Below are positions 20,436 to 33,066 of a stretch of 64,000 bases of DNA, in pieces. Every line of letters starts with the position of its first letter. Position 1 is the stretch's first letter. The position numbers and the translations under genes were made by a program. The notes beneath the pieces are model-generated. The model did no database searches and was not told the DNA's origin. It was given only the letters and a program-made list of their open reading frames with translations. The DNA comes from a bacterium (GTDB lineage: Bacteria > Desulfobacterota > Binatia > Binatales > Binataceae): positions 83,706-147,705 of the forward strand of contig JADBKU010000028.1 in assembly GCA_014896235.1 (NCBI GenBank), written 5' to 3'.

Positions 20436-21637
20436 GCCGCGCGCGCGACGCCTTCCTGCGCCATCTGGCGCAAACCTCCGACGCGCCGATCGGCCTGGAA
20501 ATCGAACGGGCCGAAGGATGCTGGCTTTATTGCGCCGATGGCCGCCGTTATCTCGACCTGATCGCGGGAATCGGCGTGAGCGCGCTGGGACATGGAAATC
20601 CCGCCGTGCTCGCGGCGATCGCGCGGCAATCGCGCCGCCATCTGCATGCGATGGTTTACGGCGAGTACGTAATCGAAGCGCAAGCGGAATATGCGGCGCG
20701 GCTCGCGGAAGCGCTGCCGCGGACGCTGTCCCGCGTTTATTTCACCAACAGCGGCGCGGAAGCGATCGAGGGCGCGCTCAAGGCCGCGCGCAAATTCACC
20801 GGCCGCGCCACCTTCGTTTCGTTCGACGGCGCGTATCACGGCGACACGATGGCGGCGTTGGCGTTGATGGGCAACGAGACTTTTCGCGCGCCGTTTGAAC
20901 CGCTGCCTGGTCCGGTGCGGCGTTTGCCTTTCGGCGACAGCGGCGCGCTCGAATCGATCGATGAAAGCGTCGCGGCCGTGGTGATCGAACCAATCCAGGC
21001 GGAGGGCGGCGTCAGAATTCCATCTCGCGAATTCATGCTGGCGCTGCGCGAACGATGTTCGCGCGTCGGAGCGCTGCTGGTTTTCGACGAGGTGCTGACC
21101 GGGTTGGGACGCACCGGGCGGCTGTTCGCGATGGAACATTTCGGCGTCAGGCCCGATCTGATCGTGCTGGCCAAAGCGCTGGGCGGCGGAATGCCGCTCG
21201 GGGCGTTTTGCGGCAGCGATGAAATTCTCGGACGGCTGGCGCACGATCCGCCGCTCGGCCATATCACCACCTTCGGCGGCCATCCGGTCTCCTGCGCCGC
21301 CGGCCGCGCCGCCTTCGATCAGATTTTGTCCAATCGATTGTGGGAAACCGCCGATACATCCGGAGCGGCGTTCCGCTCGCGCCTCGAGCAGATGATCGGC
21401 CGTCAAATCCTGGCGGTGCGCGGACTCGGGTTATTAATCGGAATCGAGTTCGCGCGGGCGGCCTCAGCGCATCGCTTCGTCGCCGAAACGATCGCTCGGG
21501 GCGTCGTGATCAATTGGACGCTTAATTCTGACCGCGTGGTCAGGCTTGCTCCGCCTCTAACGATATCCGCACTGGAACTGGATTTTGCCTTCGACGCGAT
21601 GAACCACGCCCTTGAAGCAATAGCGCCGGACGGGTAG
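20432..21637 (+). CDS. Class III (omega) aminotransferase, ArgD/acetylornithine-AT-like
   Basis: Class III fold-I motifs: GVSALGHGNPAV, VFDEVLTGLGRTGRLFAMEHFGVRPDLIVLAKALGGGMPLGAF (PLP lysine in AKALGGG), TFGGHPVSCAAG. ATGA overlap with the LuxC-like gene. Confidence 0.7.
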   Translation: MSRARDAFLRHLAQTSDAPIGLEIERAEGCWLYCADGRRYLDLIAGIGVSALGHGNPAVLAAIARQSRRHLHAMVYGEYVIEAQAEYAARLAEALPRTLSRVYFTNSGAEAIEGALKAARKFTGRATFVSFDGAYHGDTMAALALMGNETFRAPFEPLPGPVRRLPFGDSGALESIDESVAAVVIEPIQAEGGVRIPSREFMLALRERCSRVGALLVFDEVLTGLGRTGRLFAMEHFGVRPDLIVLAKALGGGMPLGAFCGSDEILGRLAHDPPLGHITTFGGHPVSCAAGRAAFDQILSNRLWETADTSGAAFRSRLEQMIGRQILAVRGLGLLIGIEFARAASAHRFVAETIARGVVINWTLNSDRVVRLAPPLTISALELDFAFDAMNHALEAIAPDG

Positions 21638-21649
21638 GGATTAAACATC

Positions 21650-22981
21650 GTGGGGGCTGCCGCATCGGCACGAAGGGCGTTTTATCGTCCGCGCAAGGTT
21701 ACTAGCAAACCGGTTGCGCCTGTGCGCCCCAAACAGGTTTCGCCACAACAGCTCGAAGCTGAATTCGACGACAATGTTGAAGCTGTAGACATTCTCAAGA
21801 AGTCCGGTCCGGTCGGAATCTTCTTTGTCGTCGCCTATATCGCGATCGACGCTCGTGCGCATCTGGCGGGGAAATCGACCCTGGCGCTCGAGTATCACTG
21901 GTTCGCGCTGGCCGTCGTACTTTTGTTCTTTGGCCTGACCTGGCTGCCGGGGTTCCGCGCACACTGGCGGTTCTGGTCGTTTATGACCTGCCTCGTGATG
22001 ATCTCGCTGATTATCAGGATCAGCGGAATCACTCACGAAGGCGCCACGCGTTATATCACGATTGTTCTTTGTCCGTTCGCGACGGCCGCATTCGTGATTT
22101 GGGGCTGGCGATGGCAGTTGCTCCTGATAATTTCCTGCTTTCTGCTCTATTTGATCGGCGAAATCCTGGTTCCGATCGGGCCGCGCTTCGATATCCACCG
22201 GCTGCTTGGATTGCTCGCGGCGCTCACGCTTTCGCAATTCACGGCGGTCTTTCTGGATCGTTACCGGCGCAGGTTGCGCCGGCAGTTGATCCAATTGGCC
22301 GAGGCCGCGGCGTTCCGTGAGACCCAGATCGCGACCATGACCCACGATATCCGCAATCCGCTGGCCACGCTGGTCGGGCTGGTAACATTGCTGGTGGAGG
22401 ACGACCTGGAGGAAAAGGACCGCAGCAATCTGCTCGCGCGCGTCTGGTCAACCACCACCTCGATGGATTTGTTGGTCAAAAATGTGCTCGACCTCTACCT
22501 TCTGGAGGAGCAGCGGCTGCGGCCGAATTGGCGGCCGATCGACGCCAACAGCGTGATCGCGGAAACGGCGGAGCATTGCGCTATCGAAGCGCGGCTCAAG
22601 GGATTGCGCCTGCGGGTCGATTTGGGCGGATTGCCGAAGGCGAGCCTCGATCCGCTTCATCTCGAACGGATCGTCGCCAATCTCGTGACGAGCGCCGTAC
22701 GGCGCACGCCGGCAGGCGAGGTGCGGCTGCAAACCTCGCAGTTTGGCGATTGGATTGTGGTCGAAGTCAGCGACACCGGCCCGGAGGCGACGCCTCACGA
22801 AATCGAGCATATCTTCGATCGGCCGAATCTGGCGGTCGATGGCGCGCGCTCATCCGCGCTCGGGCGCTATATCGCGCACGCGCTGGTCGAGGCCGACGGC
22901 GGCAAAATTCAGGCTCGCGTCGAAGAGGGGTGGGGACTCAACCTGATCGTGCAGTTGCCGATCGAGCCGCCGATTCGCTGA
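21650..22981 (+). CDS. Membrane sensor histidine kinase (orphan)
   Basis: About 6 TM helices, then HisKA (MTHDIRNPLATLVGL) and HATPase_c (VSDTGPEATPHEIEHIF, N/G boxes). No response regulator adjacent. Confidence 0.65.
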   Translation: MGAAASARRAFYRPRKVTSKPVAPVRPKQVSPQQLEAEFDDNVEAVDILKKSGPVGIFFVVAYIAIDARAHLAGKSTLALEYHWFALAVVLLFFGLTWLPGFRAHWRFWSFMTCLVMISLIIRISGITHEGATRYITIVLCPFATAAFVIWGWRWQLLLIISCFLLYLIGEILVPIGPRFDIHRLLGLLAALTLSQFTAVFLDRYRRRLRRQLIQLAEAAAFRETQIATMTHDIRNPLATLVGLVTLLVEDDLEEKDRSNLLARVWSTTTSMDLLVKNVLDLYLLEEQRLRPNWRPIDANSVIAETAEHCAIEARLKGLRLRVDLGGLPKASLDPLHLERIVANLVTSAVRRTPAGEVRLQTSQFGDWIVVEVSDTGPEATPHEIEHIFDRPNLAVDGARSSALGRYIAHALVEADGGKIQARVEEGWGLNLIVQLPIEPPIR

Positions 22982-23120
22982 TTACAGCCCTGGATTCTCA
23001 AGAAAGATCGATACAGGGTTTGCACGCGGTCAAATTTCACGTTGCGCCGACCTCGTTGCGCTATAGTGCATCCACCCGCATCGGCGCGCGCGCGTCCGGG
23101 CGAACCCGAGGAGAAACGCC

Positions 23121-24578
23121 ATGGATTTGGCGAAAAAGTCGAAATCAGCCGCGATTCGCGCACGGCTGAACCATCCGATAATCGATTCCGACGGCCATCA
23201 GATGGAGCTGCCGACGGTCTTTCAGGATTATATGCGCGAAGTGGGCGGCGCGGAGATTATCGATCGTTTCAGAGCGGTCTTTTTCGACACTTTCTTCGAT
23301 CCGCGATGGCGCAATTTCTCGCCCGCCGAGCGCCATCAGCGGCGTACGATTCGGCCCACATGGTGGGCCTGCCCGGCGCGAAACACTCGTGACTTGGCGA
23401 CCGCGCTCATGCCGCGCCTGTTCCATGAGCGGATGGACGAAATGGGACTCGACGTTTCGATCGTCTATCCGACTCTCGGGCTGCTGGCGGTGCAGATGGA
23501 AGACGACGAAGTGCGGCGCGCGGCGGCGCGCGCGCTGAATCGGATGAAGGCCGATATGTTCAGTGGGCTTACCGATCGGCTGATTCCGGTCGCGACGATC
23601 CCGATGCATACGCCGGAGGAAGCGATCGCAGAGCTTGAATATGCGGTGGGCGAGCTAGGCCTGCGCGCGGTCATGATGGCGAGCTACGTGCGAAGGCCGA
23701 TCGAATTCGCGAAAAAAATCTCGCCCGAAGCCGCCCGCTACGCAATCTGGATGGACACCTACGGGCTGGACAGCGAATACGACTACGATCCGGTCTGGGC
23801 GAAATGCGTCGAACTCGGCGTTTCGCCGACGTTTCATTCCGTGGGTTACGGATGGGGAAGCCGGGCCACGCCGTCGAATTACGTTCACAACCATCTGGGA
23901 AACTTCGCCGCCAGCGCCGACGCGATTTGCCGCGGCCTGGTCATGGGCGGCGTGCCGATGCGCTTTCCGACGCTGCGTTTCGCCTTCATGGAGGGCGGCG
24001 CGGCCTGGGCGCGCAATCTGTATTGCGATTTGATTTCACACTGGCGCAAGCGCAATCGCGCCGCGATGGAAAACTACAATCCGGCGAATATCAACGACGC
24101 GGTTTTTGTCGAACTGGCGCGCCGCTACGGAAGCGGCGGAATCGCGGAGCGCGCGGAGGAGATGCTGAAGGCTTTTCGCGGCTTCATGCAACGCGGCGAA
24201 GATCCGGCGCTGCTCGACGAATGGGAGCGGAGCGGCATCCGGCGGCCCGAAGATATTCGCGACATCTTCGCCGAACGTTTCTACTTCGGCTGCGAGGGCG
24301 ACGATCCGATGAACCTGCTCGCCTATGACGCGAAGGGATCTCCGTTCGGCGCGCGCCTGCGCGCGCTCTATGGTTCCGATCTCGGCCACTGGGACGTGCC
24401 CGAGATGGTCGAAGCGGCGGAGGAGGCGTACGAGCTGGTCGAAGAGGGCCTGCTGGGCGAAGAGAATTTCCGCGCGATGGTTTTCGACGACGCCGTGAAA
24501 TTCTGGACCGCGGCGAATCCGAATTTCTTCGCCGGAACAATCGTTGAGGACGCCGCGCGTCGCGCCTGCGCGGGCTGA
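23121..24578 (+). CDS. Amidohydrolase-2 family (TIM-barrel metal-dependent hydrolase/decarboxylase) protein
   Basis: 485 aa. N-terminal IIDSDGH metal motif, later HSVGYGWG and FMEGGAAW segments typical of PF04909-like enzymes. GAGGAG SD. Confidence 0.6.
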   Translation: MDLAKKSKSAAIRARLNHPIIDSDGHQMELPTVFQDYMREVGGAEIIDRFRAVFFDTFFDPRWRNFSPAERHQRRTIRPTWWACPARNTRDLATALMPRLFHERMDEMGLDVSIVYPTLGLLAVQMEDDEVRRAAARALNRMKADMFSGLTDRLIPVATIPMHTPEEAIAELEYAVGELGLRAVMMASYVRRPIEFAKKISPEAARYAIWMDTYGLDSEYDYDPVWAKCVELGVSPTFHSVGYGWGSRATPSNYVHNHLGNFAASADAICRGLVMGGVPMRFPTLRFAFMEGGAAWARNLYCDLISHWRKRNRAAMENYNPANINDAVFVELARRYGSGGIAERAEEMLKAFRGFMQRGEDPALLDEWERSGIRRPEDIRDIFAERFYFGCEGDDPMNLLAYDAKGSPFGARLRALYGSDLGHWDVPEMVEAAEEAYELVEEGLLGEENFRAMVFDDAVKFWTAANPNFFAGTIVEDAARRACAG

Positions 24579-24634
24579 TGAGGCCGCTGAGCTTAATTGC
24601 CGCGCCGCCGGGGCGCGCCATGGGGAGATAAATC

Positions 24635-26215
24635 TTGCGCTACGGCTTTGTCATCGACCACAACCGATGCATCGGATGCCACGCCTGCACGGTTGCGTGC
24701 AAGGAAGAAAACGACGTTCCCGTCGGCGTATTCCGCACCTGGGTCAAATACATCGAAAAGGGCGAGTTTCCCAACTCGAGCCGGCACTTCGGGGTGATGC
24801 GGTGCAATCACTGCGAAGCCGCTCCATGCGTCGAAATCTGTCCGACGCAGGCGCTCTTTCATCGTCCGGATGGCATCGTCGATTTCGACAACAGCCGCTG
24901 CATCGGATGCAAATCGTGCATGCAGGCCTGCCCGTATGACGCGCTCTATCTCGATCCGCGCACCCATACGGCCGCCAAATGCAATTTCTGCGCGCATCGC
25001 ATCGAACGCAATCTGGAGCCTGCTTGCGTGATCGTATGTCCGACGCAGGCGATCATCGCGGGCGATATCGACAACCCCGAATCGCAAGCGGGGAGGATGG
25101 TTGCGAGCGGCAAGCTCGGCGTACGCAAACCGCATAAAGCCACTCAGCCAAAACTGTTCTACTCCGGAATCGAGGGCGATTTCCTTGATCCCTCGATGAT
25201 GACGCCGCAATCGAGTTATCTCTGGTCCGATCGTCCCCCTGACGGAAATCCCTACGCTGTCGCGCCGCCATCCGCGAACTCCAAGCCGGCGCCAGGCGCG
25301 GCGCGCGTGGTTTACGACGTGGCGCATCAACGGCCTTGGGGATTGATTCCGGTCTTCTACTTGTGGACCAAGGCGATCGCCGCGGGACTGATCATCATCG
25401 CCGCGTTCGTCATGGGAATTGATCCCGAACTCGCCGCCTCGCGCGGGCCGCTGCTGAACGAATTCGCGCCGCTCGCCGCGATAATTTTTCTGGCGATAAC
25501 GACAGCGCTCCTGATCGCCGACCTCGACCGCCCCGAACGTTTTTATTTCATCCTGATCAAACCCAACCCGCGATCATGGCTGGTGCGCGGCACCTGGATT
25601 CTGATGCTGTTCGGCGCCCTTGCTGCTGCGTTGCTTGGGTACGCGGTGATATGGCGCGCGCCCGCGCCCGCGGCGTTACGATGGGCGGCGGCGGCGGCCG
25701 GCGCCGGATCCGCATGTTACTCGGCGTTCCTGTTCGCGCAGGGACGCGGCCGCGATCTTTGGCAGAATTCCTCCTTTCTATGGATCCTGCTGGCGCAAGC
25801 GGTGGTCGCCGGCGCCGCGGCGATGATTCTGCTTGCGATCCTCGCGAGTTCGCCCGCGATGCGGCATGCCGGGGCGATGGCGAATCCGGGCCTCGTCCGG
25901 AAAATGGACGTGGTGATGCTAATCGGCGTGTCGTTCAACGCCGCGATCGCGATTGGAATCGTGATGCTACCGCAATATACGGCCGACGCGCGCAAAGCGA
26001 TCGAACTGATCCGCAGCGGGCGGCTGCGCTCGAGCTTCTGGTACGGCGTGATTGGCGCCGGCAACCTGATGCCCGCGCTGCTTGCGGCGTTTCTTATCTG
26101 GCACGGCGCGTCCGACCGCGGGTTGGATCGGCTGACGGCGATTCTGGCGCTGCTCGGCGTGCTGGTGTTCGACGAAATCTGGATTCTGGCCGGCCAGGCC
26201 GCGCCGCTGAGCTGA
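24635..26215 (+). CDS. Fused 4x[4Fe-4S] ferredoxin (PsrB/DmsB-like) and NrfD/PsrC-like membrane anchor
   Basis: TTG start with GGGGAG SD. Four Cys clusters (CIGCHACTVAC, CNHCEAAPCVEICP, CIGCKSCMQACP, CNFCAHRIERNLEPACVIVCP), then about 8 TM helices of NrfD type. Confidence 0.7.
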   Translation: MRYGFVIDHNRCIGCHACTVACKEENDVPVGVFRTWVKYIEKGEFPNSSRHFGVMRCNHCEAAPCVEICPTQALFHRPDGIVDFDNSRCIGCKSCMQACPYDALYLDPRTHTAAKCNFCAHRIERNLEPACVIVCPTQAIIAGDIDNPESQAGRMVASGKLGVRKPHKATQPKLFYSGIEGDFLDPSMMTPQSSYLWSDRPPDGNPYAVAPPSANSKPAPGAARVVYDVAHQRPWGLIPVFYLWTKAIAAGLIIIAAFVMGIDPELAASRGPLLNEFAPLAAIIFLAITTALLIADLDRPERFYFILIKPNPRSWLVRGTWILMLFGALAAALLGYAVIWRAPAPAALRWAAAAAGAGSACYSAFLFAQGRGRDLWQNSSFLWILLAQAVVAGAAAMILLAILASSPAMRHAGAMANPGLVRKMDVVMLIGVSFNAAIAIGIVMLPQYTADARKAIELIRSGRLRSSFWYGVIGAGNLMPALLAAFLIWHGASDRGLDRLTAILALLGVLVFDEIWILAGQAAPLS

Positions 26216-26226
26216 GGAGCTGCAAA

Positions 26227-29052
26227 TTGAGCGAGGAACCGAAACCGCTTAATCCGGCGGCGTCTGGATTAGAGGCGCCAGCAGGCGGACTCGAAAGTTT
26301 TCCGCCGGCGGCGCAATGGGACGACTGGCGCGAATACGATCCAGCTCAATGGCCGCGCAAAGTCGAACGGCAATACCGGCTCATCCCGACCATCTGTTTC
26401 AATTGCGAAGCGGGATGCGGCTTGCTGGCCTATGTTGACAAGGCGAGCGGCCAAATCCGCAAATTCGAGGGCAACCCTGTGCATCCGGGAAGCCGCGGCC
26501 GCAACTGCGCGAAGGGCCCGGCGACGCTCAGCCAGGTTTACGACACGGAACGCATCCGCCACCCGATGCGGCGCGCGGGCAAGCGCGGCGAAGGCAAATG
26601 GGAGCGCGTATCGTGGGATGAAGCTCTAGACGATCTCGCTGCGCGGATTCGCAAAGCGCTCCTTGAAGGCCGGCGCGACCAGGTGCTCTATCACGTCGGC
26701 CGGCCGGGACATGAATTGATTTACAACCAGCGCGTGCTGCACGCGTGGGGAATCGACGGCCACAACAGCCACACCAATATCTGCTCGGCGGGAGCGCGCA
26801 CCGGCTACGCGTTCTGGCATGGGATCGATCGGCCGTCGCCCGACCACGCCAATGCGCGCTTCATCCTGCTGCTCAGCTCGCATCTCGAGGCCGGCCATTA
26901 TTTCAATCCGCATGCGCAGCGGATTATCGACGGCAAAGCGCGCGGCGCGAAAATCTGCGTAATCGATACGCGGCTTTCCAACACCGCTGCGCGCGCCGAC
27001 TACTGGCTGCCGACCTGGCCGGGAAGCGAAGCTGCGGTGTTGCTGGCGATGTGCAAGGTCTTGCTGGACGAGAACCTGTACGATAGCGACTTCGTGCGGC
27101 GCTGGGTGAATTGGGAGGAATATCTGCGCGCGGCCCATCCGGATCTGGAGCCGACCTTTGAAAACTTCGTCGCGGCGCTGAAGCAGGTCTATGCGCAATT
27201 CACGCCCGAGTTCGCCGAGCGCGAATCCGGCGCGCCGGCGGCGACGATCATCGAGGTCGCGCGCGAAATTGGCCGCGCCGGCCATGCGGTCGCTACGCAC
27301 GTCTGGCGCGGCGCGGCGGCCGGCAATCTCGGCGGATGGCAGGTGGCGCGCGCGCTCGAATTTCTTGCCGTGCTGGTCGGCGCCGTCGCAACGCCGGGCG
27401 GAACCGCGCCGGCGGCCTTCAACAAATTCATTCCGGCGCCGCCGTTGATGCCGCCGCCGCCGGCGGCGTGGAACGAGCTGACCTGGCCGCGCGAATATCC
27501 GCTCGCCTTCTTCGAGATGAGTTTTCTGATGCCGCACTTCCTTAAAGAAGGGCGCGGCAAACTCGCGGCCTACTTCACGCGCGTTTACAATCCGGTCTGG
27601 ACAAATCCCGACGGCATGACCTGGATTGAAGTGCTGCGCGACGAAACCCTGGTCGAACGGCACGCCTGCCTGACGCCGGTATGGAGCGAGACGGCGTGGT
27701 TCGCCGATTACGTGCTGCCGATGGGCCATGCGTCGGAGCGGCACGATCTGATGAGCCAGGAGACGCACGCCGCGCGCTGGATCGGATTCCGCCAGCCGGT
27801 GCTCCGGGTAGCGCTCGAACGCGCAGGCAAACGCTTCGCCACGACCTGGGAAGCGCATCGCGAAGCCGGTATCGGCGAAATTTGGGAGGAAGACGAATTC
27901 TGGATCGAACTCTCGTGGCGAATCGATCCCGACGGCGCGATGGGCATCCGGAAATACTTCGAGTCGCCGTACCGTCCGGGCGAAAAACTGACTATCGACG
28001 AATATTACCGGTGGATTTTTGAGAATAGCGTCCCCGGACTGCCTGCCGCGGCGGCGCGCGAGAACCTTTCGCCGCTTGAATTCATGCGCAAGTACGGAGC
28101 GTTTCTGATCGAAGGGAATCCCTACGGCCTGCATGAAAAACAGCTTGGGGCGGACCAACTCGAAGGCGCCAGCGTCGATGGCGCGTCACGCGTGATCAAA
28201 CGCGGCGGCGCGGCGATCGGCGTCGAAATAGACGGCGTCGCGCGGACGGGCTTTCCGACTCCCTCGCGCAAACTGGAATTTTTTTCGCCCACGCTCGCGG
28301 AGTGGAAGTGGCCGGAAATGTCGATTCCATTCTACGTCCGCAGCCACGTTCATCCCGATTCGATCGATCGCGAAAAGGGCGAGATGCTGCTGCTGCCGAC
28401 TTTCCGGCTGCCGACGCTGGTGCATACCCGTTCCGGAAACGCGAAATGGCTGTACGAAATATCGCATCGCAATCCGCTCTGGCTGCATCCCGAGGACGCC
28501 GCAAGATTCAAAGTCGGGACCGGCGATTTGCTCAAGGTTGTGACCGAAATCGGCTACTTTGTCGACCGCGTATGGGTCACGGACGGAATCCGGCCGGGCG
28601 TCGTCGCCTGCTCCCATCATCTTGGAAGATGGCGGCTTAACGATGAGCAAGGCGGCGAACGATGGTCCACCGCGCTCGTGGATCTGCGCGAGACTGAGCC
28701 AGGTAAATGGTTCATGCGACAGATTCACGGAGTGCGACCGTTTCCGAGCGAGGACGCCGACTCGGGCCGGGTATGGTGGGAGGACGCCGGGGTGCATCAG
28801 AACCTGACCTTCCCGGTGCAGCCCGATCCAATCAGCGGCGCTCACTGCTGGCATCAGAAAGTTCGCTTGGAAAAACCCGAGCCTCAGGATCGCTACGGCG
28901 ACATATTCGTCGACACCAGCGCGGCGCATGAGGTGTACCGTCGCTGGATCGCGATGGCGCGCCCCGCGCCGGGTCCCGGCGGACTGCGCCGCCCACTGTG
29001 GCTGGCGCGCGCATACCGGCCCGCCGATGAGGCGTTTTACATCAAGTCGTAA
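26227..29052 (+). CDS. Molybdopterin oxidoreductase catalytic subunit (DMSO reductase family), no Tat signal
   Basis: The long ORF 25576-29052 runs out of frame over the upstream gene. A TTG at 26227 with GAGGAG SD gives about 941 aa. N-terminal FS0 cluster CFNCEAGCG, MopB domain, C-terminal molybdopterin dinucleotide-binding region. No RR Tat motif. Confidence 0.65.
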   Translation: MSEEPKPLNPAASGLEAPAGGLESFPPAAQWDDWREYDPAQWPRKVERQYRLIPTICFNCEAGCGLLAYVDKASGQIRKFEGNPVHPGSRGRNCAKGPATLSQVYDTERIRHPMRRAGKRGEGKWERVSWDEALDDLAARIRKALLEGRRDQVLYHVGRPGHELIYNQRVLHAWGIDGHNSHTNICSAGARTGYAFWHGIDRPSPDHANARFILLLSSHLEAGHYFNPHAQRIIDGKARGAKICVIDTRLSNTAARADYWLPTWPGSEAAVLLAMCKVLLDENLYDSDFVRRWVNWEEYLRAAHPDLEPTFENFVAALKQVYAQFTPEFAERESGAPAATIIEVAREIGRAGHAVATHVWRGAAAGNLGGWQVARALEFLAVLVGAVATPGGTAPAAFNKFIPAPPLMPPPPAAWNELTWPREYPLAFFEMSFLMPHFLKEGRGKLAAYFTRVYNPVWTNPDGMTWIEVLRDETLVERHACLTPVWSETAWFADYVLPMGHASERHDLMSQETHAARWIGFRQPVLRVALERAGKRFATTWEAHREAGIGEIWEEDEFWIELSWRIDPDGAMGIRKYFESPYRPGEKLTIDEYYRWIFENSVPGLPAAAARENLSPLEFMRKYGAFLIEGNPYGLHEKQLGADQLEGASVDGASRVIKRGGAAIGVEIDGVARTGFPTPSRKLEFFSPTLAEWKWPEMSIPFYVRSHVHPDSIDREKGEMLLLPTFRLPTLVHTRSGNAKWLYEISHRNPLWLHPEDAARFKVGTGDLLKVVTEIGYFVDRVWVTDGIRPGVVACSHHLGRWRLNDEQGGERWSTALVDLRETEPGKWFMRQIHGVRPFPSEDADSGRVWWEDAGVHQNLTFPVQPDPISGAHCWHQKVRLEKPEPQDRYGDIFVDTSAAHEVYRRWIAMARPAPGPGGLRRPLWLARAYRPADEAFYIKS

Positions 29053-29193
29053 ACTAGAGTAAGCGACGAATTTAGCCGTTATAGGCCGCCATAGAGCAGA
29101 ATTGCGCGGCACTCATCCTAGATTACGCGCGCGCTGGATTTTCAACTTCACAATCGCGTAAGTCTGGCTACAATACGCGAACCGCGATGGAGT

Positions 29194-30816
29194 TTGACGC
29201 GGGATTGGGAGCCTATGGAAGCGGCGCCGTTGGCTGCACACCTTCCCCACGCGGAAGCGCACAACCAGCACAAATGGCTAATCGCGTTGGCCGTGATGCT
29301 GGGGACGACGCTCGAGGTTCTCGACAGTTCGATCGTCAACGTCTCGCTTCCGCACATGCAGGGCACCTTTTCCGCCAGCGTCGATGAAATCGCCTGGGTG
29401 CTGACCAGTTATCTGGTCGCCAACGGAATCATGATTCCGATGACCGGCTGGATTTCGTCGCGTTTCGGGCGCAAGCGCTATTTTCTGACTTCCGTGTTCA
29501 CCTTCGTAGCCGCATCGGGCCTGTGCGGCGCCGCCGGTTCGCTCGGTCAAATCGTCCTGTTCCGGCTGATTCAGGGCGCGGCCGGCGCGGCGATGCTGCC
29601 GTCGTCGCAGGCCATCTTGATGGAAACCTTTCCGCCGGAGGAGCAGCAGCTCGCGATGGCGACCTGGGGCGTGGGGCTGATGTGCGCTCCGATCCTCGGT
29701 CCGACGCTCGGCGGATGGATCACCGACAACTGGAACTGGCGCTGGAATTTCTACATCAACCTGCCGATCGGCGCGATCGCGTTCCTGATGGTTTCGGCGT
29801 TCGTGCATGACCCGCCCTATCTGCGCAATCGTGTGATTGGGCGCCGCGTCGATTACCTCGGCATCGTTTTTCTTGCCGCTTCGCTTGGCCTGCTGCAAAT
29901 CGTGCTCGATCGCGGAGAGCGCGCCGACTGGTTCAACGCGCCATGGGTGATTTGGGCGTCGATCGCGTCGGCGGCGGCCTTTCTGGCGTTGTGCGTACGC
30001 GAGCTTCATTTCAGCGAACCGATTATCGATTTGCGGATGCTTAAAATCCGCCTGTTCAGCATCGCGGTCTTTCTGGTGACGGTGCTTAGTTTCGTATTGT
30101 TCGGCACCGGCATGCTCAATCCGGTCTTTTTGCAGGAATTCATGGGCTACACCGCGTGGAAAGCGGGCCTGGTGATGGCGCCGCGGGCGATCGCCGCGAT
30201 GGCGTCGATGGTAATCGCCGGACAAGTGGCGCGCGCCGGTTACGACAACAAACGCCTGATTGGCATCAGCTTCGCTCTGATGACGGTGGGCCTATGGTAC
30301 ATGGCGCATTGGAACCTCGATGTCGGGATGTGGCAGATCATCTGGCCGGGCATCATCCTGGGCGCCGGTCTCGGCCTGTGCTTTCCAATACTTTCCGCCG
30401 CCGCGCTGTCATGCGTCGCGCGCGAACGGATGGGCTTCGCGGCAAGCTTGTACAACATGATGCGCAACACGGGCGCCGCGATCGGCATCGCATACATGAC
30501 CAACTCGCTGATCCGCAATCAGCAGATCCATCAATCGTATCTGGTGCAGCATTTTTCGGTGTTCGACGCCTGGCGGCTCTCCAACATGCCGATACACGCG
30601 CCCGGCGCGCCACCATTCGCTTATTTGCCGGAAATCGTAAGCGGCCAGAAACAGGGTCTCGGCCTGGTCTATGAAATGATTTTGGGACAGGCGTCGATAC
30701 TCGCGTTCAGCGATATCTACAGGATTCTTGCCGTGATGACCGTGCTTATGATTCCGTCGTTCCTGCTGTTTCGCGGCGCACGCACGAACGCTGGCGGGAA
30801 CGCCGCGATGCATTGA
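29194..30816 (+). CDS. MFS transporter, DHA2 (EmrB/QacA, 14-TMS) family
   Basis: 540 aa, 14 predicted TMS, DHA2 motifs (LDSSIVNVSLPHM, GRKRYFL). Confidence 0.7.
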   Translation: MTRDWEPMEAAPLAAHLPHAEAHNQHKWLIALAVMLGTTLEVLDSSIVNVSLPHMQGTFSASVDEIAWVLTSYLVANGIMIPMTGWISSRFGRKRYFLTSVFTFVAASGLCGAAGSLGQIVLFRLIQGAAGAAMLPSSQAILMETFPPEEQQLAMATWGVGLMCAPILGPTLGGWITDNWNWRWNFYINLPIGAIAFLMVSAFVHDPPYLRNRVIGRRVDYLGIVFLAASLGLLQIVLDRGERADWFNAPWVIWASIASAAAFLALCVRELHFSEPIIDLRMLKIRLFSIAVFLVTVLSFVLFGTGMLNPVFLQEFMGYTAWKAGLVMAPRAIAAMASMVIAGQVARAGYDNKRLIGISFALMTVGLWYMAHWNLDVGMWQIIWPGIILGAGLGLCFPILSAAALSCVARERMGFAASLYNMMRNTGAAIGIAYMTNSLIRNQQIHQSYLVQHFSVFDAWRLSNMPIHAPGAPPFAYLPEIVSGQKQGLGLVYEMILGQASILAFSDIYRILAVMTVLMIPSFLLFRGARTNAGGNAAMH

Positions 30817-30853
30817 CGAGCTGGCGAAATTTCCCGCCGCCGCACGATTTCAT

Positions 30854-31378
30854 TCACGGCTCCATCTTTTTCAGTGTTCGCGCAAATATTTCGCGGGCCG
30901 TTTCGTCGAACAGCACGAATTCGATCCGCTCCAGCGACGTAGGTCCGCGCAGATGGTCGCGCGCCTCAGCGAGCATCACCTCGGCGCAACGCTCGAGCGG
31001 AAAGCCGGCAATTCCGGTCCCGACGGCCGGAAACGCGATCGATTTCAGGCCATGCTCCGCCGCGAGGCGGAGCGCATTGCGCGTCGCGTCGCGCAATCCC
31101 GATTCCGACGTGCGCTCGCCCAGCCGCATGCTTGCGGCATGAATCACGTAACGCGCGGGCAGCCGTCCCGCGCCGGTGATTGCCGCTTCGCCGACGCGGA
31201 TCGGGCCGATTTTATCGCACTCGGCCTGAATCGACGGGCCGCCCCTGCTGCGGATCGCGCCGGCGACCCCTCCGCCCAGCATCAAGTCGTTGTTGGCGGC
31301 GTTGACGATCGCGTCCACTTCCGCTTCGGTAAGATCGCCTTGCCGAATGACGACACGCGTGCGCCAGTCGGTATCCAT
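30854..31378 (-). CDS. Macro domain protein (O-acetyl-ADP-ribose deacetylase, YmdB-like)
   Basis: AIVNAANNDLMLGGGVAGAI and AFPAVGTGIAGFP macro-domain motifs. Start at MDTDWRT with GAGGAG SD. Confidence 0.65.
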   Translation of the reverse strand: MDTDWRTRVVIRQGDLTEAEVDAIVNAANNDLMLGGGVAGAIRSRGGPSIQAECDKIGPIRVGEAAITGAGRLPARYVIHAASMRLGERTSESGLRDATRNALRLAAEHGLKSIAFPAVGTGIAGFPLERCAEVMLAEARDHLRGPTSLERIEFVLFDETAREIFARTLKKMEP

Positions 31379-31485
31379 TGTGACGGCTCCTCTTCGCAAA
31401 CGAAGCTTTTTGGCGCGGCGTCGCGCAGCCACGGCCGTTCGCTTTTGCTATTATTCGTCCGGGTGCGGGTTTACCCAAGGATGCG

Positions 31486-33066
31486 GTGCGGAAAGCGGTG
31501 AGGACGGAGCGGCGATTTTTTCGAACCGACGCGATCGCGGCGATTGCGCTGGTCGTAATCTTTGCCGCTGGATGCGCTAAGGCGAAGCCGCGAACGCCGG
31601 CCGGTTATCTGCAAATCGACATCAACACTTCGCCCGCGAATCTCGATCCCCGAGTCGCCACCGACGCAATCTCGGCCCGCATCGGCGAGCTGGCGTATGA
31701 ATCGCTCGTCCGGATCGATCGTGACGGAGCCTTCGTCGGCGATCTTGCCGAAAAAATCGAACGGCCCGCGCCGAACACAATCATCTTTCATTTGCGCCGT
31801 GGAGTGCGCTTCAGCGACGGCCGTCCGCTCGACGCGCGCGACGTTCTTTACACCTATGAATCCCTGCTTGACCCGAACAATCATTCGGTCAAACGCGCCG
31901 GAATGTCTGAACTGGCCGCGATCGACGCGATCGACCGATACACCGTCCGGATGACCACGCGGCGGCCTTACGCCGCCGCGCTGGGGATGGCGCTGCTCGG
32001 AATCGTGCCGCGCGGAACGCCGCTCGACGCGCGCGACGCGATCGTCGCGCCGCCCGGCAGCGGCCCGTTCAAAGTCGTCGCCTTTGAACGCGACGAAGCG
32101 GTCACGCTCGCGCGCAATCCTTACTATCCAGCGCCCTCCGGCGCGCTCGGCGGCATCGTGATGAAAGTGGTTCCCGACGCGACCGTCCGTGCGCTGGAGC
32201 TGACCGAGGGCATTTGCGGATTCGCGGAAAACGATGCGATTCAGCCTGAACTCATCTCATATCTCTCGCGCCAACCCCGGCTCCGCCTAATCCGCTCGAA
32301 CGGAACGACGTATCAATACCTCATTTTCAATTTCCGCGATCCGCGCCTGCGCGATCCGCGCGTCCGCCGCGCGATCGCCTACGGAATCGATCGGCAGGCT
32401 ATCGTCGCAGCTCTTCTGCGCGGCAATGCGCGCCTGGCGACCGGAATGCTCGCTCCGGAAAACTGGGCCTACAATGGCGATGTTCCGCGCTATCCTTACG
32501 ACCCAGCCAAAGCGCGCGCCCTGCTCGAATCCGCGGGCTATACGCGCGCGCGCCCGCTGCGTCTGATCTACAAGACGACGCCCGAGGGCCGGCGGCTCGC
32601 GGAGGCGATTCAGGCGATGCTGCGCCAGGTGGGCGTGGCGATCGAAATTCGCACCAACGAGTTTGCGACCTTTTACAGCGATCTGCGCTCGGGCAATTTC
32701 GATCTCGCGGCCAGTCAGTGGGTGGGCGTCGCCGATCCGCATCAGTACTACCTCATTTTCGATTCGCGGATGACTCCGCAGGGCGGCGGCAACAATCGCG
32801 GCGATTACGCCAATCCGGAGATGGATCGCCTGCTGGAAGCAGGTGACGCCGAGCTTGATCCCGCCGCGCGGCGCGCGATTTATGCGCGGGTCCAGCAAAT
32901 CGCCGCGGCCGACCTGCCATACGTATCGCTTTGGTGGATCGACAACGTCGCTGTAATCGATCGCCGCCTCGGCGGTTTCGAGCCGTTTCCCAATGGCAGT
33001 CTGCTTTCGCTTGGCGCCGCGCGATGGCTTTCGCCGGCGGCGGCCTCCGGCGCAGCACGTCCGTGA
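31486..33066 (+). CDS. ABC transporter substrate-binding lipoprotein (family 5, peptide/nickel/opine type)
   Basis: Lipobox (FAAGC). SBP_bac_5-like length and motifs. Confidence 0.7.
   Translation: MRKAVRTERRFFRTDAIAAIALVVIFAAGCAKAKPRTPAGYLQIDINTSPANLDPRVATDAISARIGELAYESLVRIDRDGAFVGDLAEKIERPAPNTIIFHLRRGVRFSDGRPLDARDVLYTYESLLDPNNHSVKRAGMSELAAIDAIDRYTVRMTTRRPYAAALGMALLGIVPRGTPLDARDAIVAPPGSGPFKVVAFERDEAVTLARNPYYPAPSGALGGIVMKVVPDATVRALELTEGICGFAENDAIQPELISYLSRQPRLRLIRSNGTTYQYLIFNFRDPRLRDPRVRRAIAYGIDRQAIVAALLRGNARLATGMLAPENWAYNGDVPRYPYDPAKARALLESAGYTRARPLRLIYKTTPEGRRLAEAIQAMLRQVGVAIEIRTNEFATFYSDLRSGNFDLAASQWVGVADPHQYYLIFDSRMTPQGGGNNRGDYANPEMDRLLEAGDAELDPAARRAIYARVQQIAAADLPYVSLWWIDNVAVIDRRLGGFEPFPNGSLLSLGAARWLSPAAASGAARP

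Follow-up and report, generated by a model that had tools for sequence, protein, structure and literature searches.

Which reaction does an NrfD-anchored molybdoenzyme without an export signal catalyze, and does the amidohydrolase gene in front of it belong to the same pathway? These questions are raised by positions 23121–29052 of a 64,000-nucleotide stretch of DNA (the window; positions 83,706 to 147,705 of the forward strand of contig JADBKU010000028.1, assembly GCA_014896235.1, Binataceae). Here, an amidohydrolase gene is followed on the same strand by a gene for a fused iron-sulfur (FeS)/NrfD protein and a gene for a molybdenum (Mo) subunit; we refer to the latter two as the pair. A preliminary description of this region had proposed a cytoplasm-facing, quinone-coupled molybdoenzyme and, speculatively, an aromatic pathway that included the amidohydrolase. 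We find that the pair encodes a membrane-bound molybdoenzyme whose catalytic side faces the cytoplasm, and that the amidohydrolase is a chance neighbour, not a conserved partner. Judging its substrate from gene neighbourhoods only, we favour with moderate confidence a sulfite:quinone oxidoreductase that turns cytoplasmic sulfite into sulfate.

A fused iron-sulfur/NrfD subunit and a molybdenum subunit

The pair comprises the following features.

24622–24627, + strand: Shine-Dalgarno sequence GGGGAG, 7 nt upstream of the TTG start of the fused gene (read from the sequence)
24635–26215, + strand: fused FeS-NrfD subunit, 526 residues, TTG start; electron transfer and membrane anchor
24635–25174, + strand: four-cluster ferredoxin domain, residues 1–180 (Fer4_11, E 4e-24)
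25328–26197, + strand: NrfD/PsrC-type membrane domain, residues 232–521, eight transmembrane helices (PF03916, E 2.8e-19; hydropathy)
26216–26219, + strand: Shine-Dalgarno sequence GGAG, 7 nt upstream of the TTG start of the Mo gene
26227–29052, + strand: catalytic subunit of the bis-molybdopterin guanine dinucleotide (bis-MGD) type, 941 residues, TTG start, without a twin-arginine (Tat) signal (PF04879, PF00384, PF01568)
26395–26508, + strand: FS0 [4Fe-4S] site (Cys57, Cys60, Cys64, Cys94)
26782–26784, + strand: Cys186, predicted Mo ligand in the motif HTNICSAG, aligned with the ligand cysteines of ArrA (6CZ7) and PsrA (2VPW)

Pfam matches and the coordinates read from the sequence bear out the three genes, their positions and their common strand as first described. 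The proposed fusion of four FeS clusters with an NrfD anchor in one protein also holds. Its ferredoxin domain contains 16 cysteines in four ferredoxin motifs (residues 12, 15, 18, 22, 57, 60, 65, 69, 89, 92, 95, 99, 116, 119, 131 and 135), residues 2–177 match Thermus PsrB (2VPW_B, E 3.8e-52), and a linker of about 50 residues joins this domain to the N-terminus of the NrfD anchor. The four-cluster ferredoxin and the NrfD-type anchor required of a complex iron-sulfur molybdoenzyme (CISM) are therefore both present, on one polypeptide. We counted 16 cysteines in 44 of 48 members of the fused family. Shorter relatives without the fusion were also sought; the matches were mainly pieces of fused genes truncated at contig ends, a result with no bearing on SoeB or SoeC.

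At locus L001 (6374–7975), as at L002 and L003, public gene calls give a 409-residue NrfD protein and a spurious antisense gene, while the true gene at L001 is a 533-residue FeS-NrfD fusion with a TTG start. The fusion is probably hidden in many annotations by missed TTG or GTG starts.

The preliminary description had assigned the product of the second gene of the pair to the dimethyl sulfoxide (DMSO) reductase family with an FS0 cluster. Its three Pfam domains (Molybdop_Fe4S4, E 8e-12; Molybdopterin, E 5e-22; Molydop_binding, E 5e-14) and the FS0 cysteine motif confirm a catalytic subunit of the DMSO reductase (MopB)/CISM type. Around the predicted Mo ligand, 62 of 84 family loci show the strict pattern H-T-N-[VI]-C-S-A. 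PsrA and ArrA match residues ~50–410 with E-values of 1e-39 to 7e-41, and the C-terminal half aligns with them in short pieces only. All 24 NCBIfam equivalog models that matched the Mo subunit (PhsA, DmsA/YnfE, ArrA, TtrA, QrcB, Fdh, Nap, Nar and EbdA among them) scored far under their cut-offs; the best score was 205.8 bits for PhsA against a cut-off of 694, and ArrA reached 130 against 1600. The Mo subunit therefore falls in none of those characterised families. Since the Mo gene begins 11 nt after the stop codon of the fused gene, translational coupling of the two is likely.

Both subunits lack an export signal and the enzyme faces the cytoplasm

As had been noted, neither protein carries a Tat signal. 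An in-frame TAA (24629–24631) lies two codons upstream of the fused-gene TTG, making a signal peptide on the FeS subunit impossible, and in six relatives a stop codon immediately precedes the conserved M/V/L-RYGFVID start. No twin-arginine signal was found on the Mo subunit. Its N-terminal 55 residues are conserved across the family and hydrophilic, with 12-residue hydropathy peaking at 0.64. We also looked for an alternative in-frame start that would add such a signal and found none; the longer open frame, from 25576, merely overlaps the NrfD gene. A permissive Tat pattern matched 15 loci, in every case either at the conserved RRY directly before FS0 or at the out-of-gene overlap with the NrfD gene, so none of these matches is a signal; RR pairs occur at no other place. 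ActB of alternative complex III, encoded in the same genome, served as an internal control and shows a clear SRRSFLKL signal. The alternative complex III locus (contig C30:9540–14398) consists of a multihaem ActA-like gene and genes for the 1040-residue ActB and a 455-residue ActC of the NrfD type.

The distribution of positive charges points the same way. As an independent test by the positive-inside rule, we aligned 48 fused proteins: loops facing the FeS side of the eight helices average 10.65 lysines and arginines versus 1.65 for loops facing the other side, and the bias toward the FeS side holds in 48 of 48 proteins. Together with the lack of signals, this supports the cytoplasmic orientation that had been proposed. 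Quinone coupling, likewise part of that proposal, is probable in view of the NrfD family to which the anchor belongs. Cytoplasm-facing NrfD-anchored complexes have otherwise been proposed only for SoeABC, a sulfite:quinone oxidoreductase of this orientation (review PMC8076601).

The pair is widespread and has probably moved between phyla

More than 8000 homologues of the Mo subunit were scored; the best 120 are 75–93% identical to it and all are ~940 residues long. For a scan of loci, we took one genome per species and obtained 80 loci with 63–80% identity. In 69 of these, spread over at least 10 phyla, the gene that immediately precedes the Mo gene, in the same direction, is the fused FeS-NrfD gene; the remaining 11 are mostly cut by contig ends. 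This pairing is far beyond chance. Hosts include Binatia, Acidobacteriota, Rokubacteria/Methylomirabilota, Planctomycetota, Gemmatimonadota, KSB1, Dormibacterota and, within Chloroflexota, Ktedonobacteria, Thermomicrobia and Dehalococcoidia. Among cultured organisms, the pair is carried by a megaplasmid of Thermomicrobium roseum (64% identity), by plasmid pRHL3 of Rhodococcus jostii RHA1 (58% identity) and by several haloarchaeal plasmids, including those of Natrinema (51–55% identity). A Myxococcota relative with 42% identity keeps the fusion. The pair in the window is thus an ordinary member of a very large, uncharacterised family.

The maximum-likelihood tree gathers the family into a single clade (100% support in the SH-like approximate likelihood ratio test, SH-aLRT), with a long branch between it and unfused relatives of ~35% identity. 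Phylum labels on this tree require 20 changes, compared to a minimum of 11. The protein from the window groups with Terriglobia and not with most Binatia, and the copy on the Natrinema halophilum plasmid (L095) is nested in a bacterial clade of Acidobacteriota and KSB1 (98% SH-aLRT), suggesting repeated transfer between phyla and between domains. Only 3 of 201 sampled genomes of the window's own phylum contain the gene. This rarity and the presence of copies on plasmids suggest a mobile accessory module.

Sulfur genes recur beside the pair

We clustered the three genes on each side of the pair in all loci. No universal third gene was found by this clustering, and the neighbour families that do recur all belong to sulfur oxidation. 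A fusion of metallo-beta-lactamase (MBL) and rhodanese domains, which we take to be a form of persulfide dioxygenase (PDO), lies within three genes of the pair at 9 loci and within 10 kb at 18. Within three genes we also found the sulfite exporter TauE/SafE (7 loci, directly upstream in 5), an FCSD-type sulfide dehydrogenase flavoprotein (6 loci), a SoxA/TsdA cytochrome (5 loci), a YeeE-type sulfur transporter (4 loci) and SoxY (4 loci). This sulfur context appears independently in at least seven phyla, with differing gene sets.

Individual loci illustrate the pattern. In a Binatia relative, genes for an ArsR regulator, a rhodanese and TauE precede the pair. The order on RHA1 plasmid pRHL3 is DsrE, TusA, the fused gene, the Mo gene and an Mrp/NBP35-family gene, with two MBL genes, ArsR and thioredoxin nearby. 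The 42%-identical Myxococcota relative combines the pair with a PDO-rhodanese gene and two YeeE genes. On the T. roseum megaplasmid, a gene for a CsoR-family regulator (L091:7093–7371) lies 12 nt upstream of the fused gene. This regulator has two cysteines and lacks the copper-ligand histidine four residues before the second, a pattern seen in the persulfide sensor CstR and not in the copper-sensing CsoR. The theme shared by these neighbours is cytoplasmic sulfite. In work by Koch and Dahl from 2018, sHdr-type systems reportedly deliver sulfite into the cytoplasm. The sHdr cluster of T. roseum is induced 45-fold in persistence (PMC6776052). We did not use a plasmid NrfD entry of the T. roseum transcriptome (trd_A0059, 1.9-fold up), as its correspondence to the orthologue could not be established.

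On RHA1 pRHL3 (L092:11841–13010) and on the N. halophilum plasmid (L095:9918–11078), the end of the Mo gene overlaps with the gene for the Mrp/NBP35-family ATPase. The ATPase may be a dedicated FeS-cluster maturation factor for the enzyme; no Mrp/NBP35 gene adjoins the pair in the window.

The amidohydrolase is a chance neighbour

The gene upstream of the pair encodes a protein with a single Pfam match.

23121–24578, + strand: Amidohydrolase_2-family gene, 485 residues (PF04909, E 2.3e-15, residues 123–300)

A gap of 56 nt separates it from the fused gene on the same strand, both here and at L006, a 93%-identical relative that is the only other locus where it adjoins the pair. It may be co-transcribed with the pair in the window genome. 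As a functional partner, which the preliminary description had speculatively made it, it failed the co-occurrence check: just 3 of the 80 loci have a homologue no more than 10 kb from the pair, and of these one is on the opposite strand, one is 6.5 kb away behind six genes and one is a match of 23% identity. The host genome also contains four close paralogues (48–55% identity; C4:25044–26507, C25:15894–17345, C41:19405–20919 and C22:36902–38398) as well as over 20 that are more remote. Beside the four close paralogues are genes for family III CoA-transferases and luciferase-like monooxygenases, along with a methyltransferase gene and hydrolase genes.

The best solved relative of the amidohydrolase is PtmU3 (E 1.2e-9), a diiron monooxygenase, so this family may not be hydrolytic. 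No NCBIfam match was obtained for the protein. We considered its membership in the non-oxidative decarboxylases (ACMSD, LigW, gamma-resorcylate decarboxylase) and rejected it, as the matches to decarboxylases in the PDB are weak (E 1e-6 to 6e-3) and cover partial stretches, and as linkage to the pair is so rare.

Cytoplasmic sulfite as the favoured substrate

In the mechanism that we propose, the 941-residue subunit would bind Mo-bis-MGD via Cys186, hold one [4Fe-4S] cluster and dock on the four-cluster ferredoxin domain that is fused to the eight-helix NrfD-type anchor. Electrons would run from the substrate through five FeS clusters to a quinone in the NrfD domain. The most likely reaction would be the oxidation of cytoplasmic sulfite to sulfate. 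The sulfite removed in this way would be that made in the cell by persulfide dioxygenase, sHdr-type systems and sulfonate dioxygenases, and its electrons would be fed into respiration.

The host genome, which is 95% complete, contains an MBL-rhodanese gene (contig C44), a TauE gene (C16) and two TauD-family dioxygenase genes. The two TauD-family genes and the MBL-rhodanese gene are sources of cytoplasmic sulfite in this genome. A Pfam search of the genome found one TusA, and tblastn with FCSD, SoxY, TsdA, YeeE, DsrE and TusA queries gave no match above 50% coverage; Sox and FCSD genes were thus not found with the queries used. In this host, the enzyme would detoxify sulfite during organosulfur and persulfide turnover and would not serve lithotrophy.

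Several observations weigh against sulfite oxidation. No sulfur gene adjoins the pair in the window and most of the 80 loci have none within three genes, which makes the association recurrent, not universal. Four SUOX-fold genes in the host genome are alternative candidates for sulfite oxidation, and DsrE was not found in this 95%-complete assembly. SoeABC consists of three subunits in the order soeA-soeB-soeC, whereas the pair has B and C fused and the order BC-A. IMG gives all close homologues just a generic COG name. Lastly, Chloroflexi and Actinobacteria are absent from a KEGG-based SoeC survey, though T. roseum and RHA1 carry the pair, indicating that orthology pipelines do not recognise the family as soeABC.

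The same inward-facing architecture could act on another sulfur species, either oxidising thiosulfate or a persulfide, bound to a protein or thiol, that TusA, DsrE or rhodanese deliver, or using quinol to reduce intracellular polysulfide, persulfide or tetrathionate. That DsrE and TusA stand directly upstream of the pair in RHA1 fits this idea, as does the recurrence of rhodanese and YeeE-type transporter genes nearby. The closest solved or curated relatives are polysulfide/thiosulfate and arsenate reductases, and the Aquifex enzyme that today bears the name SoeABC entered the literature as a sulfur reductase (PMC4378227). We nevertheless consider this reading unlikely. The enzymes encoded nearby (PDO and, in T. 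roseum, sHdr) all yield sulfite, the sulfite exporter TauE is the commonest immediate neighbour, and the hosts are mostly aerobic soil heterotrophs with no evident need for cytoplasmic polysulfide respiration. Still less probable is a substrate that contains no sulfur (arsenite, selenite, formate or an organic compound), with the sulfur neighbourhoods reflecting shared regulation or mobile co-transfer. The DMSO reductase family switches substrate readily, the neighbours in the window are unrelated to sulfur, and the pair is patchily distributed on plasmids and megaplasmids and rare in its own phylum. However, the sulfur context recurs in at least seven phyla, in differing gene sets that share sulfite as product or substrate, and the Mo subunit stays far under the cut-off of every curated model for enzymes acting on arsenate, selenate, formate, nitrate and DMSO.

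The aromatic reading of the preliminary description combined a decarboxylase (the amidohydrolase) and a Mo-hydroxylase in a module for anaerobic hydroxy-aromatic catabolism. While the short same-strand gap in two closely related genomes and the decarboxylases within the Amidohydro_2 superfamily, visible as the weak PDB matches, gave it some appeal, we now regard it as very improbable. The amidohydrolase accompanies the pair in so few loci, and its many paralogues stand in such unrelated contexts, that it does not behave as a partner. Moreover, it is sulfur genes that recur beside the pair and not aromatic-catabolic genes, and in RHA1, T. roseum and the Myxococcota relative the pair stands with sulfur genes alone.

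Surroundings of the pair in the window

Upstream of the region, the window contains a LuxE/LuxC/aminotransferase cassette and a histidine kinase gene. Downstream of the pair are a major facilitator superfamily (MFS) transporter gene and then a peptide ATP-binding cassette (ABC) importer.

29147–29174, just upstream of the MFS gene: sigma-70-like promoter match, 10 of 12 positions, the sole match within 22800–29400
29194–30816, + strand: MFS_1 transporter, 540 residues; a neighbour in the closest relatives only and outside the conserved system
30854–31432, - strand: gene for a Macro-domain protein (E 9e-38), flanked by the MFS gene and the peptide ABC importer

The promoter match in front of position 29194 fits the MFS gene as a separate transcription unit. 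A scan for terminators and promoters between the genes did not exceed what shuffled sequence gives, with 11 terminator-like sites compared to 7.4 +/- 2.5. The Macro-domain gene is kept at the same position in the closest relatives (L006–L008) and is also found near the pair in L004.

In four hot-spring metatranscriptome libraries, short contigs match parts of all genes from ~21000 to 31500 with 90–99% identity, although carry-over of DNA is possible. No contig spans a gene junction by the required 31 letters, and these matches do not show co-transcription or expression level. The best DNA sources for positions 21000–31500 are coal, soil, hot-spring and rhizosphere metagenomes. Together, the metagenome and metatranscriptome matches indicate that a close relative of the host organism is widespread.

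Significance and comparison with known systems

Sulfite is toxic and arises in cells from the oxidation of persulfides, sulfonates and sulfane sulfur. We know of no sulfite-removing enzyme for most non-proteobacterial soil bacteria and, to our knowledge, inventories of sulfur-cycle genes currently count just SoeABC, SorAB and Apr/Sat. If the pair encodes a sulfite:quinone oxidoreductase, it would close a gap in these inventories. It would also be a second case of an NrfD anchor in inverted orientation, in which the effect of orientation on quinone and proton coupling could be studied. Since the pair occurs in cultured, tractable organisms (R. jostii RHA1, T. roseum and Natrinema), its function is directly testable, and the existence of cultured hosts makes the family a worthwhile target. 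For the window itself, the outcome is mainly a correction: an aromatic pathway is not supported, and the amidohydrolase is a bystander.

By sequence, the closest solved structures are PsrABC of Thermus thermophilus (2VPW–2VPZ) and ArrAB (6CZ7), in which the Mo-ligand cysteine is conserved. Unlike the pair, these enzymes are Tat-exported and periplasmic, are built from separate subunits and are shorter by ~180 residues. In layout and orientation the pair resembles PSRLC3 of green sulfur bacteria, a two-gene, polysulfide-reductase-like complex that three papers present as a cytoplasmic sulfite oxidiser, inferred without experiment (PMC5473276, PMC9324843, PMC6338057). Compared by description only, the two systems share both the two-gene layout and the inward orientation. 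The present family differs in that it occurs in non-phototrophic soil phyla, actinomycetes and haloarchaea, and usually does not lie beside dsr genes. As paraphrased elsewhere, Dahl et al. 2013 regarded such genes as SoeABC-type and universal in purple and green sulfur bacteria.

SoeABC itself is known from Allochromatium vinosum (SoeA D3RNN8), Aquifex aeolicus (aq_1234/1232/1231) and Ruegeria pomeroyi. The pair resembles SoeABC in several features. Both have a Tat-less bis-MGD subunit with FS0 and a cysteine ligand, a four-cluster ferredoxin and an eight-helix NrfD-type anchor; in both, the peripheral subunits are placed on the cytoplasmic (N) side, as predicted for SoeABC in PMC8076601 and as found here for the pair. 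The link to cytoplasmic sulfite would be a further likeness, though for the pair it comes from gene neighbourhoods. We tentatively suggest that the BC-fused enzyme with gene order BC-A may be a lineage distinct from SoeABC that came to face inward independently. It could be the main route of cytoplasmic sulfite oxidation in many soil phyla (Binatia, Acidobacteriota, Rokubacteria/Methylomirabilota, Chloroflexota and Actinomycetota) and in haloarchaea, spread horizontally on plasmids, or might alternatively act on persulfide carried by TusA or DsrE; as a whole, this broader proposal is possible but less probable than sulfite oxidation by the pair.

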